This document shows positions 181 to 11,729 of a stretch of 64,000 nucleotides of DNA, piece after piece. The notes under the pieces were generated by a model, which was not told where the DNA came from, did no database searches, and saw only the letters and a program-made list of their open reading frames with translations. The position numbers were made by a program, and so were the translations under genes. The stretch's first letter is position 1. Each line of letters starts with the position of its first letter. This DNA comes from Escherichia phage vB_Eco_NR1: the sequence record LR990704. One strand, written 5' to 3'.

Positions 181-479
181 GCCTTGAATTCTGATGTCTG
201 TGATTCAAAACGAATATCGCCTTTGATGACTAGCTCAGCATCAAGACCAAATACGACAATGATATGCGCGGAACCTGGATACAACGTAATGGCAATAGAA
301 TCCACCTGGTCTGGAAGCAAAGTGTTCAATACATGAGTCACTTGAGCATGGATTCGAAGCTCGGCTGCGTTATCAAGCTTTTCAAACATATTATTAGCGA
401 TAATTTGACTAAACACTACTTCTACGATTTTAGAATAAGTCGGAAACATATTTACCTCACATAATTTTCTTCGAGCCAA
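174..479 (-). CDS. hypothetical protein (101 aa), T4 cd-pseT region small ORF
   Basis: ORF track; same strand and tight packing with pseT operon. Confidence 0.6.
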   Translation of the reverse strand: MARRKLCEVNMFPTYSKIVEVVFSQIIANNMFEKLDNAAELRIHAQVTHVLNTLLPDQVDSIAITLYPGSAHIIVVFGLDAELVIKGDIRFESQTSEFKAI

Positions 480-513: not shown

Positions 514-1739
<1,226 letters not shown>

Positions 1740-6834: not shown

Positions 6835-9099
6835 TCATAATTTACAGGATGAACAATCTTCAGCTTTTGGAGTTTCTATTTCATAATCATCAGTACCAGA
6901 ACCATCACGGGTATTATGATAATAGAAATTTTTTCCGCCAAAATACCAAAAGTACAAAAGGTCATCAATCATTACAGACATTGGAACCTTTCCTTTTGGA
7001 AAAATCTGCGGGTCATAATATGTATTTGCTGAAGCTGATTGACATACCCATTTAAGCATAATAGCTACCTGCGTAAGATAAGGTTTATTACCTTTCTTAG
7101 CTAATTTCCATGTATAATCATAGAGGTCTATGTTATGCTCAATATTGGGCACGACTTGATTAAAGGAGCCCTCTTTTGATTCTTTAACAGAGACTGGTCC
7201 ACGTGGAGGCTCGATACCGTTTGTACTGTTAGAAACTTGGGAAGATGACTCACATGGCATAAGTGCTGATAATGTGCTATTACGGATGCCAAAGAGCTTA
7301 AGGTCTTCCCGCAGCGACGACCAGTCACAAACGTATTTTGGAGCTGCGATTTGGTCAATCTTTTTATTGTACCAGTCGATAGGTAATTCGCCTCGAGACC
7401 AACGAGTGTCTGAATAATATTCGCAAGGTCCTTTTTCTTTGGCGAGCTTAATGGATGCTTTAATGAGTCCATACTGTAATCTCTCAAATAGTTCATGTGT
7501 TAAATCGTTAGCATCTTCATAAGAAGCAAAGTTACTTGCCAGCCAAGCTGCATAGTTAGTAACACCTACACCGAGGTTACGACGCTTTTTAGCTTTTTCT
7601 GCTTCAGGAACTGGATATCCTTGGTAATCCAAAAGATTATCAAGAGCACGAACTTGGACTTCTGCCAATTCATTAATTTTATCTTGGTCTTGCCAGTCAA
7701 AATTATCCAGTACGAATGCAGATAACGTACACAATCCAATTTCAGCATCAGGACTATTCACATCATTTGTTGGAATAGCAATTTCACAACACAAGTTACT
7801 CTGACGAATAGGTGCCTTTTCACGAATAAACGGAGTATAGTTATTCGTATTATCAATGAACTGTACATAAATCCTTGCTGTTCCTGAACGTTCAGTCATG
7901 AGCAATTCAAATAGTTCACGGGCTTTAATACGCTTTTTACGAATATTAGGGTCTTTTTCTGCTGCTTCGTATAATTCACGGAAACGGTCTTGGTCTTTAA
8001 AATAAGAATAATAAAGCTCTCCACCCATTTCATGTGGACTGAACAAAGTAATGTAATCGTTCTTTCCAAATCGTTCCATCATCAAATCATTCAGCTGAAC
8101 GCCATAATCCATATGACGAATGCGGTTTTCTTCTACGCCTTTGTTATTTTTCAAAACGAGAAGATTTTCAACTTCCAAATGCCAAATAGGATAATAAGCA
8201 GTAGCAGCGCCGCCACGAATTCCACCCTGTGAACATGATTTAACTGCAGTCTGAAAATGTTTCCAAAAAGGAATAACACCAGTATGACGTACTTCACCCA
8301 TGCCAATCTTAGAACCTTCAGCACGAATCATACCAACATTAATACCAATTCCAGCGCGTTTAGAGATATATTCAACAATTGAAGCGGAAGCCTTATTGAT
8401 AGACTTCAATGAATCACCTGCCTCAATAACAACACATGAACTAAACTGTCGAGTTGGAGTACGGCAACCAGCCATAATAGGAGTTGGCAATGAAATCTGT
8501 CGAGTAGATACTGCTTCATAAAAACGGATAACATGTTTTAATCTATCAACAGGTTCATCTTGATGCAGTGCCATTCCAATAGTCATAAATGCAAACTGCG
8601 GAGTTTCATAAATTTGACCAGTGGTTTTATCTTTAACTAGATATTTTTCTTTTAATTGCATCGCACCGGAATAAGTAAATTCCATATCCCGCTCGTGCTT
8701 AATTTTTGATTCTAAAAATGTAATTTCTTCTGCTGAATATTTTGACAATAATTCAGGGTCATATTTACCTGCATTTACACAGTAAGAAATATGGTCAATA
8801 AATGAACGCGGTTCATACTGCCCGTAAACATGCTTACGAAGAGCAAACATTAAACAGCGTGCAGCTACATATTGATAATCAGGCTCTTCAACCGAAATAG
8901 AATTCGCAGCAGCCTTAATTACAATAGTTTGAATGTCATCAGTGGTCATTCCATCACGGAGATATGATTTAATATTTTCATATAATTCATAAGGATCTAC
9001 AGATGTTCCTTCAGCTGCCCAAGATAAAACTTTAATAATTTTTTGTGGGTCAAAGCTCTGAGAAACACCACTACTTTTGATAACATTAATTAATTGCAT
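6835..9099 (-). CDS. nrdA: ribonucleotide reductase class Ia large (alpha) subunit
   Basis: 754 aa (T4 NrdA 754 aa); ATP-cone N-terminus, catalytic NxCxE (SNLCCEI) and C-terminal CSSCKL tail. Confidence 0.97.
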   Translation of the reverse strand: MQLINVIKSSGVSQSFDPQKIIKVLSWAAEGTSVDPYELYENIKSYLRDGMTTDDIQTIVIKAAANSISVEEPDYQYVAARCLMFALRKHVYGQYEPRSFIDHISYCVNAGKYDPELLSKYSAEEITFLESKIKHERDMEFTYSGAMQLKEKYLVKDKTTGQIYETPQFAFMTIGMALHQDEPVDRLKHVIRFYEAVSTRQISLPTPIMAGCRTPTRQFSSCVVIEAGDSLKSINKASASIVEYISKRAGIGINVGMIRAEGSKIGMGEVRHTGVIPFWKHFQTAVKSCSQGGIRGGAATAYYPIWHLEVENLLVLKNNKGVEENRIRHMDYGVQLNDLMMERFGKNDYITLFSPHEMGGELYYSYFKDQDRFRELYEAAEKDPNIRKKRIKARELFELLMTERSGTARIYVQFIDNTNNYTPFIREKAPIRQSNLCCEIAIPTNDVNSPDAEIGLCTLSAFVLDNFDWQDQDKINELAEVQVRALDNLLDYQGYPVPEAEKAKKRRNLGVGVTNYAAWLASNFASYEDANDLTHELFERLQYGLIKASIKLAKEKGPCEYYSDTRWSRGELPIDWYNKKIDQIAAPKYVCDWSSLREDLKLFGIRNSTLSALMPCESSSQVSNSTNGIEPPRGPVSVKESKEGSFNQVVPNIEHNIDLYDYTWKLAKKGNKPYLTQVAIMLKWVCQSASANTYYDPQIFPKGKVPMSVMIDDLLYFWYFGGKNFYYHNTRDGSGTDDYEIETPKAEDCSSCKL

Positions 9100-9416
9100 A
9101 AGTCCTCAACTTGAAAATCGTCTTTAAACAATCGGTTAACTATATGAGCTATTATATCACCATGACACGGCTTTGGTTTACATGTGCATCCTAGCCTCAT
9201 TCCACGTAAAGGCTCTAAATGTGCTTTAGTTATTTCTCCGGATTTAATTCGACGTATAAAATCTTTTTTGAATAATTCAATGGCAGCCTCCCGGCTGCCA
9301 GCATCTTTACCGACGTAATTTCCCCAAAATGTACCACGGTGAATATTAACATCAAAGTCGGATTTGTATTTATTCACTACCCGGCATAGACGGCCCACGC
9401 TGGAATAATTCGTCAT
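9090..9416 (-). CDS. DUF4326-like protein (108 aa); start uncertain
   Basis: motifs RVVN..KSDFDV..IHRG, WGN, and [13 protein letters not shown] resemble the DUF4326 family; ATG at 9416 lies 47 nt inside upstream ORF, GTG alternatives exist. Confidence 0.6.
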
Positions 9417-9633
9417 ATTGTTTTTCCGTTAAAACAGTAATATCGTAGTAACAGTCAGAAGAAGTTTTAACTGTGGAAATTTTATTATCAAAATACTCAC
9501 GAGTCATTTTATGAGTATAATATTTTTTACCATAAATGATAATAGGCTGTTCTGGTCCTGGAACTTCTAACTCGCTTGGGTTAGGAAGTGTAAAAAGAAC
9601 AACGCCAGAAGTATCTTTAAATCGTAAAATCAT
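9370..9633 (-). CDS. hypothetical protein (87 aa), translationally coupled to td
   Basis: start ATG overlaps td stop as ATGA (aaa atg gca atATGAttttacg). Confidence 0.6.
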
Positions 9634-10490
9634 ATTGCCATTTTCCCTTTAATTGCTGGATGCGATTCATAATTTTCAAGGATAAAATCTTTCGGTTTCA
9701 TGTATTCAGTTAACCAGTAAAGCTGTGTTTCGGTGTCACAATTTCCAAACTCTATAGGCCAATCAATTTTAAGTTCACATAGTTCTTTAGGCTCACGACG
9801 TAAAATTTCTTTACATTGCTCAGTATGATTCATATAGATGTGAGTATTACCACCAGAAAATATCAAATCTCCTGGGATAAGATTACACATCTTAGCCACA
9901 ATATGCGTCAAGGCAGCGTACGAGGCAATGTTGAATGGCAATCCCAAGAAAACATCTACACTTCTTTGGTACCATTGTAAATCAAGATAACCATTACGCA
10001 CATTAAACTGATAGAACATATGACAGGGCGGTAATGCCATTTGATTGATTTCAGCTGGATTCCATGCTGAAACGATTTGACGTCGATCAGTTGGTAATTT
10101 TTTAATACGATCAATAGTTTCAACTAATTGATCCACACCACCGAAATCACGCCATTGTTTACCGTATATAGGACCAAGTTCACCACTATGATATCCTAGG
10201 TCTTTAGCCTGGTTTTCATAGTTATCGTCCCAAATAGTTTTGCCTTGAATAAGACTACCATGAGTGCGAAGACGTAAATCATTAACATTGGTAGAACCGG
10301 AAATAAACCATAAAAGCTCAGCAATGCATGCATTCCAGGCGAGCTTCTTAGTTGTTACTGCAGGAAAACCTTTACTTAAATCCCAGCGTAATTTAGTACC
10401 GAACAAAGCAATTGTTCCTGTGCCCGTTCGGTCATCGGTTTCATAGCCATTTTCAAAAATGTCTTTAATTAAATCTTGGTATTGTTTCAT
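9630..10490 (-). CDS. td: thymidylate synthase (intron-free)
   Basis: 286 aa continuous ORF; ThyA motifs (catalytic PPCH in [11 protein letters not shown]); matches recalled T4 Td exon-joined length. Confidence 0.97.
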
Positions 10491-10535: not shown

Positions 10536-10883
10536 TCAATACGGTTTAGCATCAAATTTTCTCTCAATTTCAGGCGTGAAATATAATTCTTTACCGCGTT
10601 TGGAAAAGCGACCAATAATATGATAATTATTCTCATCAAACGTGATATTACCAATATCCATAGCTTTCAACCAAATATCGATATTTCTATCCAACTTTAT
10701 GTCAAAATTCCAATACGGAGAACTATTACCGAAAATACTGCAAGCGGATTCAGTAAAACAACTACTATAAATCTTGTCTTTAGGAACTACTAATTGATAA
10801 ACGCCTTTAATAAACTGAGGACCCTGCCACTTTGGCTGTTTCTCATCTTTTTCTAATAGAATAGGGTAATAATTAAAATTCAT
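10536..10883 (-). CDS. hypothetical protein (115 aa) inserted between frd and td
   Basis: ORF track; fills the 412-bp frd-td interval; weak SD GGCGGAAAT upstream. Confidence 0.6.
   Translation of the reverse strand: MNFNYYPILLEKDEKQPKWQGPQFIKGVYQLVVPKDKIYSSCFTESACSIFGNSSPYWNFDIKLDRNIDIWLKAMDIGNITFDENNYHIIGRFSKRGKELYFTPEIERKFDAKPY

Positions 10884-10902: not shown

Positions 10903-11729
<827 letters not shown>

Follow-up and report, generated by a model that had tools for sequence, protein, structure and literature searches.

The td/nrdA.2/nrdA.1/nrdA locus of a T4-like phage and a predicted enzymatic role for its stand-alone DUF4326 protein

The DNA analysed here, referred to as the window, is a stretch of 64,000 nucleotides from Escherichia phage vB_Eco_NR1 (record LR990704). 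Positions 9090-9633 lie within the td / nrdA.2 / nrdA.1 / nrdA region on the minus strand of this Tequatrovirus (T4-like) genome (Table 1). Every base between the td start codon and the nrdA stop codon is coding. Successive open reading frames (ORFs) overlap by 4, 47, and 10 nt, and therefore translation of each gene begins within its predecessor. The 10-nt overlap of nrdA.1 with nrdA (9090..9099), which is absent from the initial annotation, is common to T4 and Jiaodavirus.

Table 1. Features of the td-nrdA region, in window coordinates
Feature	Position	Strand	Evidence
td, thymidylate synthase, 286 aa, intronless allele	9630..10490	-	ORF list; annotation of near-identical phage R5505; T4 alignment
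ATGA stop/start overlap of td and nrdA.2	9630..9633	-	sequence; alignments
nrdA.2 (T4 ORF 'Y'), 87 aa, DUF5496	9370..9633	-	Pfam; T4 annotation
Out-of-frame overlap of nrdA.2 and nrdA.1, 47 nt	9370..9416	-	sequence; haplotype comparison
nrdA.1, 108 aa, stand-alone DUF4326 protein	9090..9416	-	Pfam; phrog_464; tblastn vs T4; T4 annotation; AF2; proteomics
DUF4326 core, residues 11-90	9147..9386	-	Pfam envelope; alignments, including the 91-sequence family alignment
Hairpin UGGCAGCC-GGGA-GGCUGCCA, nrdA.1 codons 39-45	9281..9300	-	J03968 features; fold
Signature C77-x-C79-x-P81-x-x-C84-H85-G86-D87	9156..9188	-	alignments; model
nrdA ribosome-binding site (GAGGA) and ATG within the last nrdA.1 codons (V-E-D-L-C-N)	9090..9107	-	sequence; J03968 RBS 660-663
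nrdA, class Ia ribonucleotide reductase large subunit, 754 aa	6835..9099	-	ORF list; annotations

On the basis of sequence comparison, the two small ORFs are very likely the orthologues of T4 nrdA.2 and nrdA.1, with the identity and anatomy of the locus as given here. NrdA.1 is identical to its T4 counterpart over 108 of 108 residues (tblastn, 100%), while NrdA.2 matches at 86 of 87 (98.9%), residue 32 being I in the window and T in T4. DNA identity to T4 is about 99% from the nrdA.2 ATG onward, and nrdA.1 carries only two differences, both synonymous (Y17, TAC vs TAT in T4; R27, CGT vs CGC). T4 NrdA.1 (NP_049846, UniProt P32279, gene T4p235; 142671..142997) lies in the same place between nrdA.2 and nrdA and has the same internal hairpin. 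T4 NrdA.2 (NP_049847, UniProt P32280; 142951..143214), the ORF 'Y' of the Tseng et al. 1988 record J03968, occupies the same slot after td, and its tail likewise reads into nrdA.1; both the 47-nt and the 10-nt overlaps are as in the window. The nrdA.2/nrdA.1 block is held by 488 (about 490) phage records at identities of at least 95%. Hundreds of T4-like phages share this arrangement, so the original observation, though correct, is ordinary, and the view of the locus as something unusual is not sustained: T4 annotates both ORFs and its geometry is identical, which is the very outcome that the initial annotation had named as refuting it. Both T4 genes have had annotations for decades and stand here in their customary order; as a genome feature they are nothing new.

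nrdA.2 and nrdA.1 are real, expressed protein genes. Both products have been seen as proteins in T4 infection, NrdA.1 by mass spectrometry (PMC9697503). In the same T4 omics supplement, nrdA.2 is classed as early RNA and middle protein and grouped with td, and nrdA.1 is classed as early RNA and late protein and grouped with nrdA and nrdB (PMC9697503).

The junction between td and nrdA.2 departs from that of T4. The td TGA stop (9630-9632) shares an ATGA (9633..9630) with the start codon of the 87-aa ORF, as the initial annotation had stated, and its parallel with T4 frd and td is also accurate (frd 145109..145690, with td ending at 145112). In T4, however, td contains an intron and is separated from nrdA.2 by a spacer of about 20 nt with a GAGGA Shine-Dalgarno sequence, whereas the window combines ATGA with an intronless td, the last ~90 nt of which align to T4 with an identity of just ~65%. 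The ATGA junction is specific to this allele and is not what T4 has; it is the minority allele, found in 122 phage records vs at least 227 of the T4 type. Because only a distant AAGGG lies upstream, nrdA.2 of the ATGA allele is probably started by termination-reinitiation, while its T4 counterpart would use the GAGGA Shine-Dalgarno sequence.

The nrdA.1 ATG lies 47 nt inside nrdA.2 in a different frame (217 mod 3 = 1), and the nrdA.2 stop codon TAA (9370-9372) falls in the conserved DUF4326 core codons V14-N15-K16. What the overlap encodes is the C-terminal tail of NrdA.2 and the N-terminal leader of NrdA.1, neither of which is conserved and both of which are dispensable; Mosigvirus NrdA.2 has no such tail. 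Among Tequatroviruses the overlap is hypervariable, with 18 of its 47 sites segregating and a π of 0.128 vs 0.073-0.077 at adjoining third codon positions, yet the eight haplotypes found in 21 sequences contain no stop and no indel in either frame.

It could be argued that this overlap is an annotation artefact and that NrdA.1 truly starts further 3′, with the codon-14 GTG as one candidate, so that the genes barely overlap. Phage T6 is annotated with a 95-aa NrdA.1 from that codon, nrdA.1 is left without annotation in ECO4 and NBEco003, the Shine-Dalgarno sequence ahead of ATG 9416 is weak (GGA), and NrdA.1 residues 1-10 are not conserved. However, a codon-14 start was rejected since it would drop C11, R12, and V13, which are at least 90% conserved in T4-like homologues (V13, 86% family-wide). 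Relatives in other genera begin 2-3 residues ahead of C11, and a start even as late as C11 would still overlap the nrdA.2 stop. The alternative GTG at codon 7 was rejected as not conserved. ATG 9416 is unchanged in all 21 sequences, and in none of the eight haplotypes does another start codon occur after the preceding stop and before C11. An artefactual overlap is thus very unlikely, and the out-of-frame overlap described in the initial annotation is upheld as genuine, with ATG 9416 as the start.

The DUF4326-like character claimed for the 108-aa ORF is borne out by a match to Pfam DUF4326 (PF14216) with E 5.5e-22 and 78.7 bits against a cut-off of 25, in which residues 11-90 cover profile positions 1-81 of 82. 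NrdA.1 also matches phrog_464 with E 1.7e-48. All of the motifs quoted at the outset are present, namely RVVN (12-15), IHRG (25-28), WGN (31-33), and the 13-residue motif at 75-87. The protein has every signature residue of the family (V14, N15, D22, R27, G32, N33, L75, G76, C77, C79, P81, C84, H85, G86, and D87), and these are 92-100% conserved among 91 diverse representatives aligned at pairwise identities of at most 50%. In this alignment N33, C77, C79, and C84 are invariant, H85 is conserved at 99%, and D22 and R27 at 97%. The AF2 model of NrdA.1 (pLDDT 86.8) places the Cys/His motif on a strand-loop-helix element. Homologues across many genera are 46-94% identical, and their conservation pattern is protein-like.

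The stretch occupied by nrdA.1 also carries signals of the nrdA leader. The features of the 1988 T4 record J03968, placed on the window by the relation window = 9767 - x, include a late promoter, two stem-loops, -35/-10 elements, and the nrdA ribosome-binding site; one of the nrdA-leader stem-loops is the hairpin at 9281..9300, which in phages L028 and ECML-134 occurs as a loop-inverted allele. Synonymous sites in the nrdA.1 body are unusually invariant, as non-coding constraint would give. As the 1988 record has no ORF here, these observations could be taken to mean that the stretch is merely a transcriptional and translational leader of nrdA and not a protein gene. Coding and regulatory signals can nevertheless coexist, and the DUF4326 match with all family-invariant residues, the protein-like conservation, and the detection of NrdA.1 by mass spectrometry have effectively refuted a leader-only stretch. 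With a z of -1.14 for the RNA fold of the nrdA.1 body, its conservation at the nucleotide level is not accounted for by RNA structure on a global scale. A search of Rfam (E up to 1) over 8800..10000 returned no match, and a sigma-70/terminator scan found sites no more numerous than in shuffled controls.

NrdA.2 matches Pfam DUF5496 (PF17600) over residues 1-87 of 87 with E 1.4e-62 and 208.2 bits vs a cut-off of 27. Its known range is limited to Tequatrovirus (identity of at least 88%) and Mosigvirus (33-38%). Its model is of low confidence (pLDDT 63) and has a beta-grasp-like fold. NrdA.2 is small and may be of the beta-grasp/PB1-like type; a role as an adaptor that binds other proteins is the most plausible suggestion, though a weak one.

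Across the Straboviridae, the two genes follow separate courses. Mosigvirus has nrdA.2 without nrdA.1, and Krischvirus has nrdA.1 without nrdA.2. Karamvirus and Jiaodavirus pair nrdA.1 with an unrelated small ORF, and the ORFs in this slot have no detectable relation to DUF5496. In Slopekvirus nrdA.1 is placed after nrdB, and in Biquartavirus it follows td without nrdA. A rare extra Dam-like methylase was also observed between nrdA and nrdB. By these sequence comparisons, nrdA.2 and nrdA.1 are gained and lost independently among genera. The initial description of an accessory cassette in the nucleotide-metabolism module is therefore fair as to "accessory" at the family level, and its location is right, but the independent variation of the genes argues against a cassette.

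The stronger proposal that nrdA.2 and nrdA.1 form a functional two-gene anti-defence cassette draws on both genes being small, non-core, and early, on the ties of DUF4326 relatives to NAD+/ADP-ribose (ADPr) conflict domains, and on the overlap encoding the NrdA.2 tail and NrdA.1 leader being more variable than adjoining synonymous sites. The independent occurrence of the genes, with unrelated small ORFs filling the slot upstream of nrdA.1 elsewhere, argues against it, and the hypervariable segment is not part of the conserved core of either protein. Neither protein has a match in PADLOC (E ≤0.1) or NCBIfam, nor does the 115-aa frd-td ORF, and no anti-defence phenotype was found in the literature. 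A joint cassette is accordingly improbable, and the two proteins would act independently of one another.

Turning to NrdA.1 itself, it is predicted to be a minimal stand-alone DUF4326 enzyme with the invariant loop C77-x-C79-x4-C84-H85-G-D together with D22, R27, and G32-N33. Burroughs, Aravind, and colleagues have predicted an ADPr- or ribose-phosphate-processing activity for DUF4326 (PMC9503650, PMC7824862). The fusions found here reproduce the published set and prediction. Among 42 multidomain DUF4326 proteins, SLOG-type partners comprise mSLOG (7), YAcAr (6), and DprA-like domains (4), and the other partners include NADAR (5, plus one NADAR-DarT1), Macro (1), and TIR (1). A 2025 preprint additionally describes fusions of DUF4326 to ORF83 homologues, ORF83 being an anti-Avs protein. 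Multidomain DUF4326 proteins come from jumbo phages, giant viruses, and bacteria, and their domain, like that of NrdA.1, spans ~85 residues and has the invariant N33 and the C-x-C-x-P-x-x-C-H-G-D loop. NrdA.1, unlike the SLOG-, NADAR-, Macro-, and TIR-fused proteins, is the bare domain without a partner, and the domains fused to remote family members do not by themselves establish what substrate the lone T4 domain acts on. The leading but tentative reading of the sequence is that NrdA.1 is a small hydrolase or phosphoesterase acting on a ribose-phosphate or an ADPr-derived nucleotide. In infected cells, such an activity could remove immune signals or the products of NAD+/ADPr breakdown.

DUF4326 has been placed in the rhodanese-phosphatase superfamily by a published but not yet detailed sequence analysis (PMC9503650). 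In the NrdA.1 model an invariant cysteine ends a beta-strand and is followed by a loop and the N-terminus of a helix, and NrdA.1 may work like these Cys-phosphatases. The canonical CX5R motif (C-X4/5-R in rhodaneses) is absent, however; the residues six positions after C77, C79, and C84 are P83, H85, and A90, with no arginine. Because this signature is missing, the superfamily placement rests on the unpublished analysis of others. Foldseek returned only E values of at least 1.4, none of them significant, and searches of the PDB, whether by the sequence of either protein or by the DUF4326 profile, reached no E value under 0.4. Identity with the NADAR/YbiA N-glycosidases was rejected, as the profile-profile probability is 0.4% and the NADAR (PF08719) catalytic motifs are absent; NADAR and DUF4326 occur as separate adjacent domains within one polypeptide. 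The literature on nrdA.1, nrdA.2, DUF5496, and DUF4326 yielded no experimental characterisation.

The missing CX5R motif also fits a different role, in which NrdA.1 would assist T4 dNTP synthesis (ribonucleotide reductase, td) as an accessory factor that binds metal or takes part in redox chemistry, with C-x-C-x4-C-H binding Zn/Fe or shuttling electrons. Three invariant cysteines and a histidine look like a metal site, although the further invariant polar residues D22, R27, N33, and D87 suggest an active site. Despite changing neighbours, nrdA.1 is kept in the td/nrdA/nrdB cluster of Tequatro-, Karam-, Jiaoda-, Krisch-, Slopek-, and Biquartavirus, and its product shares a protein kinetic class with NrdA and NrdB in T4. 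This linkage is weak functional evidence because T4-like synteny is largely inherited; moreover, an Ackermannviridae homologue lies near gp46/47-type recombination nuclease genes rather than nrd genes, and Mosigvirus, which keeps td-nrdA.2-nrdA, has no DUF4326 gene there. Across the family, the DUF4326 fusions are to SLOG, NADAR, Macro, and TIR domains rather than to ribonucleotide reductase or redox domains. A dNTP-synthesis factor is therefore rather unlikely. As for the hydrolase reading, a more specific and still less probable version is that NrdA.1 is a minimal Cys/His hydrolase that destroys or recycles an ADPr-derived molecule in T4-like phages, with the hypervariable leader and tail reflecting ongoing host-phage conflict. 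Candidate targets would be an immune signal of the TIR/Thoeris type, or else phosphorylated ADPr arising as a by-product when host NADases or T4's own ADP-ribosyltransferases act.

The DUF4326 membership of nrdA.1 is already in public annotation. The family is very large (10,449 clusters at 50% identity), its domain recurs in fusions with NAD+/ADPr conflict domains, and no member is simpler or easier to work with than T4 NrdA.1. Establishing the biochemistry of this protein would give an annotation to thousands of proteins from viruses and bacteria and would test the published prediction on viral processing of ADPr-derived signals. If the ADPr-hydrolase reading is true, T4, the best-studied phage, carries an unrecognised counter-defence or NAD-salvage enzyme beside its ribonucleotide reductase.

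The 108-aa protein encoded downstream of td in Escherichia phage vB_Eco_NR1 belongs to DUF4326 (Pfam PF14216, E 5.5e-22, 78.7 bits against a cut-off of 25), as the initial annotation had proposed, and the 87-aa protein matches DUF5496 over its full length (PF17600, E 1.4e-62). The corresponding PHROGs families, phrog_464 and phrog_2458, are both annotated "unknown function". The two ORFs are the T4 genes nrdA.1 and nrdA.2, found in the T4 reference genome at 142671..142997 and 142951..143214; there, too, the products are 108 and 87 aa long, the two genes overlap by 47 nt, and nrdA.1 overlaps nrdA by 10 nt. NrdA.1 is identical to its T4 counterpart at 108 of 108 positions, and NrdA.2 differs by one residue. 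A 701-nt query spanning the block matched 514 phage records, 488 of them with at least 80% coverage and essentially all of these at 95% identity or more; all 488 are Tequatrovirus-like phages of Escherichia, Shigella, Yersinia, Salmonella, and Citrobacter. Both genes were already known and annotated in T4-type genomes. The initial annotation holds for the assignment to DUF4326, for the overlap, for the setting in nucleotide metabolism, and, at the level of the family, for the term "accessory"; the pair is not unusual, being highly conserved in T4-type genomes in the same arrangement.

The sequence and ORF list bear out the described geometry throughout. The tetranucleotide ATGA (9633..9630) is common to the td stop codon TGA and the nrdA.2 ATG, nrdA.1 starts 47 nt ahead of the nrdA.2 end in a different frame, and nrdA.1 ends 10 nt past the nrdA ATG. 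Because successive ORFs overlap, the stretch between the td start and the nrdA stop contains not a single non-coding base. The GAGGA Shine-Dalgarno sequence and ATG of nrdA lie inside the final nrdA.1 codons (V-E-D-L-C-N). The nrdA ribosome-binding site, rather than protein function, may impose the C-terminal "EDL" common to NrdA.1 homologues. Aeromonas-type homologues end in "LDFL" or "LNFL" instead (35-sequence alignment), and in Aeromonas phage avDM2, the sole phage of this type whose context was checked, nrdA does not follow the DUF4326 gene.

Features of the frd–nrdB region in the window
Feature	Position	Strand	Basis or detail
frd	10903..11511	minus	ORF list
115-aa ORF	10536..10883	minus	ORF list; phrog_1928
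td, 286 aa, intronless	9630..10490	minus	ORF list
Sharp mosaic breakpoint	9630..9720	minus	exactly at td/nrdA.2 junction
nrdA.2, 87-aa ORF	9370..9633	minus	ORF list
nrdA.1, 108-aa ORF	9090..9416	minus	ORF list
Hypervariable patch	9387..9416	minus	nrdA.1 codons 2-10 / last ~14 nrdA.2 codons
8-bp hairpin in nrdA.1 coding sequence	9281..9300	minus	UGGCAGCC-GGGA-GGCUGCCA
Cold zone	about 9064..9333	minus	nrdA.1 body and first ~30 nt of nrdA
nrdA Shine-Dalgarno and ATG	9090..9107	minus
nrdA	6835..9099	minus	ORF list
D12-class N6-adenine DNA methyltransferase, 263 aa	6000..6791	minus	Pfam PF02086, E 5.5e-24

The 47-nt overlap is genuine, and inspection of ATG and GTG alternatives left ATG 9416 as the nrdA.1 start. 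Alignment of 35 homologues puts the start of the conserved DUF4326 core at C11 (C-R-V-V-N), after a variable stretch of residues 1-10, and in other genera the relatives begin "M-K-x-C". Since the nrdA.2 stop codon falls within nrdA.1 codons 14-16, nrdA.1 cannot keep its core without overlapping nrdA.2. ATG 9416 is present without exception in 21 sequences representing 8 overlap haplotypes and is their sole start codon upstream of C11, and neither frame contains a stop or indel; a GTG at codon 7 was rejected as a start, as it is not conserved across the haplotypes. Mosigvirus NrdA.2, which has no nrdA.1 after it, stops ~8 residues earlier, so the Tequatrovirus tail is a read-through extension. 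Thus, a dispensable NrdA.2 tail is paired in the overlap with a dispensable NrdA.1 leader. Public records annotate the DUF4326 gene inconsistently: in T6 (L014, 757..1044) it begins at an internal GTG, codon 14, with loss of the conserved C11-R12-V13, and it is left unannotated in ECO4 and NBEco003 (L012 and L013, about 718..1044) and in avDM2 (OP380605; L007, 2501..2818).

The sole real difference between the window and T4 lies at the td/nrdA.2 junction. The two align at ~99% identity from the nrdA.2 ATG onward and at ~65% immediately upstream, where T4 has roughly 24 extra nt with a td stop TAA and a GAGGA Shine-Dalgarno sequence 5 nt before the nrdA.2 ATG. Because the T4 junction differs, the ATGA coupling is a property of one td allele, which is intronless with a divergent 3′ end; td of T4, T6, ECO4, and G2540, in contrast, carries the I-TevI intron. 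With a query specific to the junction, 122 phage records proved to have the window type and at least 227 the T4 type. The purine-rich element closest to the nrdA.2 start in the window allele, AAGGG, is 11 nt upstream, so nrdA.2 is likely translated by termination-reinitiation.

Two neighboring slots also differ from T4. The ATGA overlap between frd and td in T4 is broken in the window by the 115-aa ORF, which is shared with phage R5505 and has no Pfam, NCBIfam, or PADLOC match; in other genera this slot holds a homing endonuclease or other small ORFs. Between nrdA and nrdB, T4 carries the homing endonuclease mobE and nrdB.1, whereas the window carries the methyltransferase. This insert is present at 80% coverage or more in 7 of 531 matching phage records (carriers are T4_ev240, ECO07P2, 236Ecol005PP, and EP02SG and, more distantly, BGP, CF-SP2, and fDHCT2) and seems to be an additional, rare Dam-like methylase in a hot spot for mobile elements.

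The proposal that the two ORFs form a cassette does not hold, as nrdA.1 and nrdA.2 move independently across other Straboviridae. The gene order is td, a 68-77-aa ORF, DUF4326, nrdA in Jiaodavirus and Karamvirus, the small ORF being unrelated to DUF5496 (hhalign probability <3%); td, DUF4326, nrdA in Krischvirus; td, nrdA.2, nrdA in Mosigvirus, with DUF4326 absent at the site; nrdA, nrdB, DUF4326 in Slopekvirus; and frd, td, an unannotated DUF4326 ORF, denA in Biquartavirus. Ackermannviridae have a DUF4326 homologue elsewhere, in phage PhiSH19 near recombination nuclease genes. DUF5496 is limited to Tequatrovirus (at least 88% identity) and Mosigvirus (33-38%), and 1,960 phage records contain a DUF4326 homologue.

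Both proteins are produced, since both are listed in the supplement of a time-resolved T4 transcriptome and proteome (PMC9697503), in which nrdA.2 falls into the class of td (early RNA, middle protein) and nrdA.1 into that of nrdA and nrdB (early RNA, late protein). The 1988 T4 record J03968 annotates only nrdA.2, as ORF "Y", and presents the nrdA.1 stretch as the leader of nrdA, in which it places two stem-loops, a late promoter, -35/-10 elements, and an RBS. Such signals and the nrdA.1 coding sequence share the same DNA.

Nucleotide diversity in 15 Tequatrovirus genomes is offered as observation only, because the sample is small and was partly picked for nrdA.2 diversity. Pi is 0.035 in the nrdA.2-only part (0.077 at third codon positions), 0.128 in the overlap (18 of 47 sites segregating), 0.0065 in the nrdA.1-only part (third positions, 0.0135), and 0.0245 in the next 200 nt of nrdA (third positions, 0.073). 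The overlap thus exceeds adjacent synonymous sites, and in an 8-genome subset its variation is even across the codon positions of both frames. Its 30-nt hypervariable patch reaches pi 0.168 with 15 segregating sites, more than twice the adjacent third-position diversity. The nrdA.1 body lies five- to six-fold below adjacent synonymous sites, and the cold zone is near-invariant, synonymous sites included. Global RNA structure does not explain this invariance (fold z -1.14), and Rfam has no match in the region. Possible causes are regulatory signals of nrdA embedded in the stretch or a recent sweep; J03968 places nrdA promoters and stem-loops in the cold zone.

The hairpin exists in a loop-inverted form, GGCAGCC-TCCC-GGCTGCC versus GGCAGCC-GGGA-GGCTGCC in the window and T4, observed in ECML-134, T4_ev151, and one Logan contig (loci L028, 1620..1640, and L030, the ECML-134 record, 340..362). 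The inversion changes R42-E43 of NrdA.1 to L42-P43; within the DUF4326 family, conservation of R42 is 85%. This form of the hairpin is rare and missing from IMG/VR (0 versus 5).

A DUF4326 profile search of 1.84 billion representatives returned 10,449 clusters at E ≤1e-3. Among 91 single-domain representatives, V14-N15, D22, R27, and G32-N33, as well as the motif L-G-C77-x-C79-x-P81-x-x-C84-H85-G-D87, are 92-100% conserved, and window NrdA.1 has all of them, the motif being complete. Its AlphaFold model is confident (pLDDT 86.8) and shows a β-strand ending at C77, then the Cys/His loop and a helix. In 42 multidomain members, DUF4326 is fused to SLOG-type domains (mSLOG 7, YAcAr 6, DprA-like 4), NADAR (5, and NADAR-DarT1 1), Macro (1), and TIR (1), and once each to PolA, RNase H, and RNA polymerase. 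The same associations had been reported by Iyer, Burroughs, Aravind and colleagues (PMC9503650, PMC7824862) and are independently reproduced here. According to a 2025 preprint, amoeba viruses carry DUF4326 in fusions with homologues of ORF83, an anti-Avs protein. A relationship of DUF4326 to NADAR itself is unsupported (hhalign probability 0.4%).

As a tentative best estimate, NrdA.1 would be a small hydrolase that depends on Cys/His residues, probably a phosphoesterase, with a ribose-phosphate or a nucleotide derived from ADPr as its predicted substrate. The published placement of DUF4326 in the rhodanese-phosphatase superfamily (PMC9503650) found no confirmation here: NrdA.1 lacks the canonical CX5R signature, Foldseek gave no match below E 1.4, with PTP domains at E 3-9, and sequence and profile searches of the PDB were empty. 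The main alternative, in which NrdA.1 serves the RNR/dNTP machinery as a metal-binding or redox accessory, would fit the persistent linkage of DUF4326 to td/nrd genes in Straboviridae and the NrdA/B-like protein kinetics of NrdA.1, and is considered unlikely, less probable than the hydrolase. T4 NrdA.1 is a convenient model for DUF4326 biochemistry.
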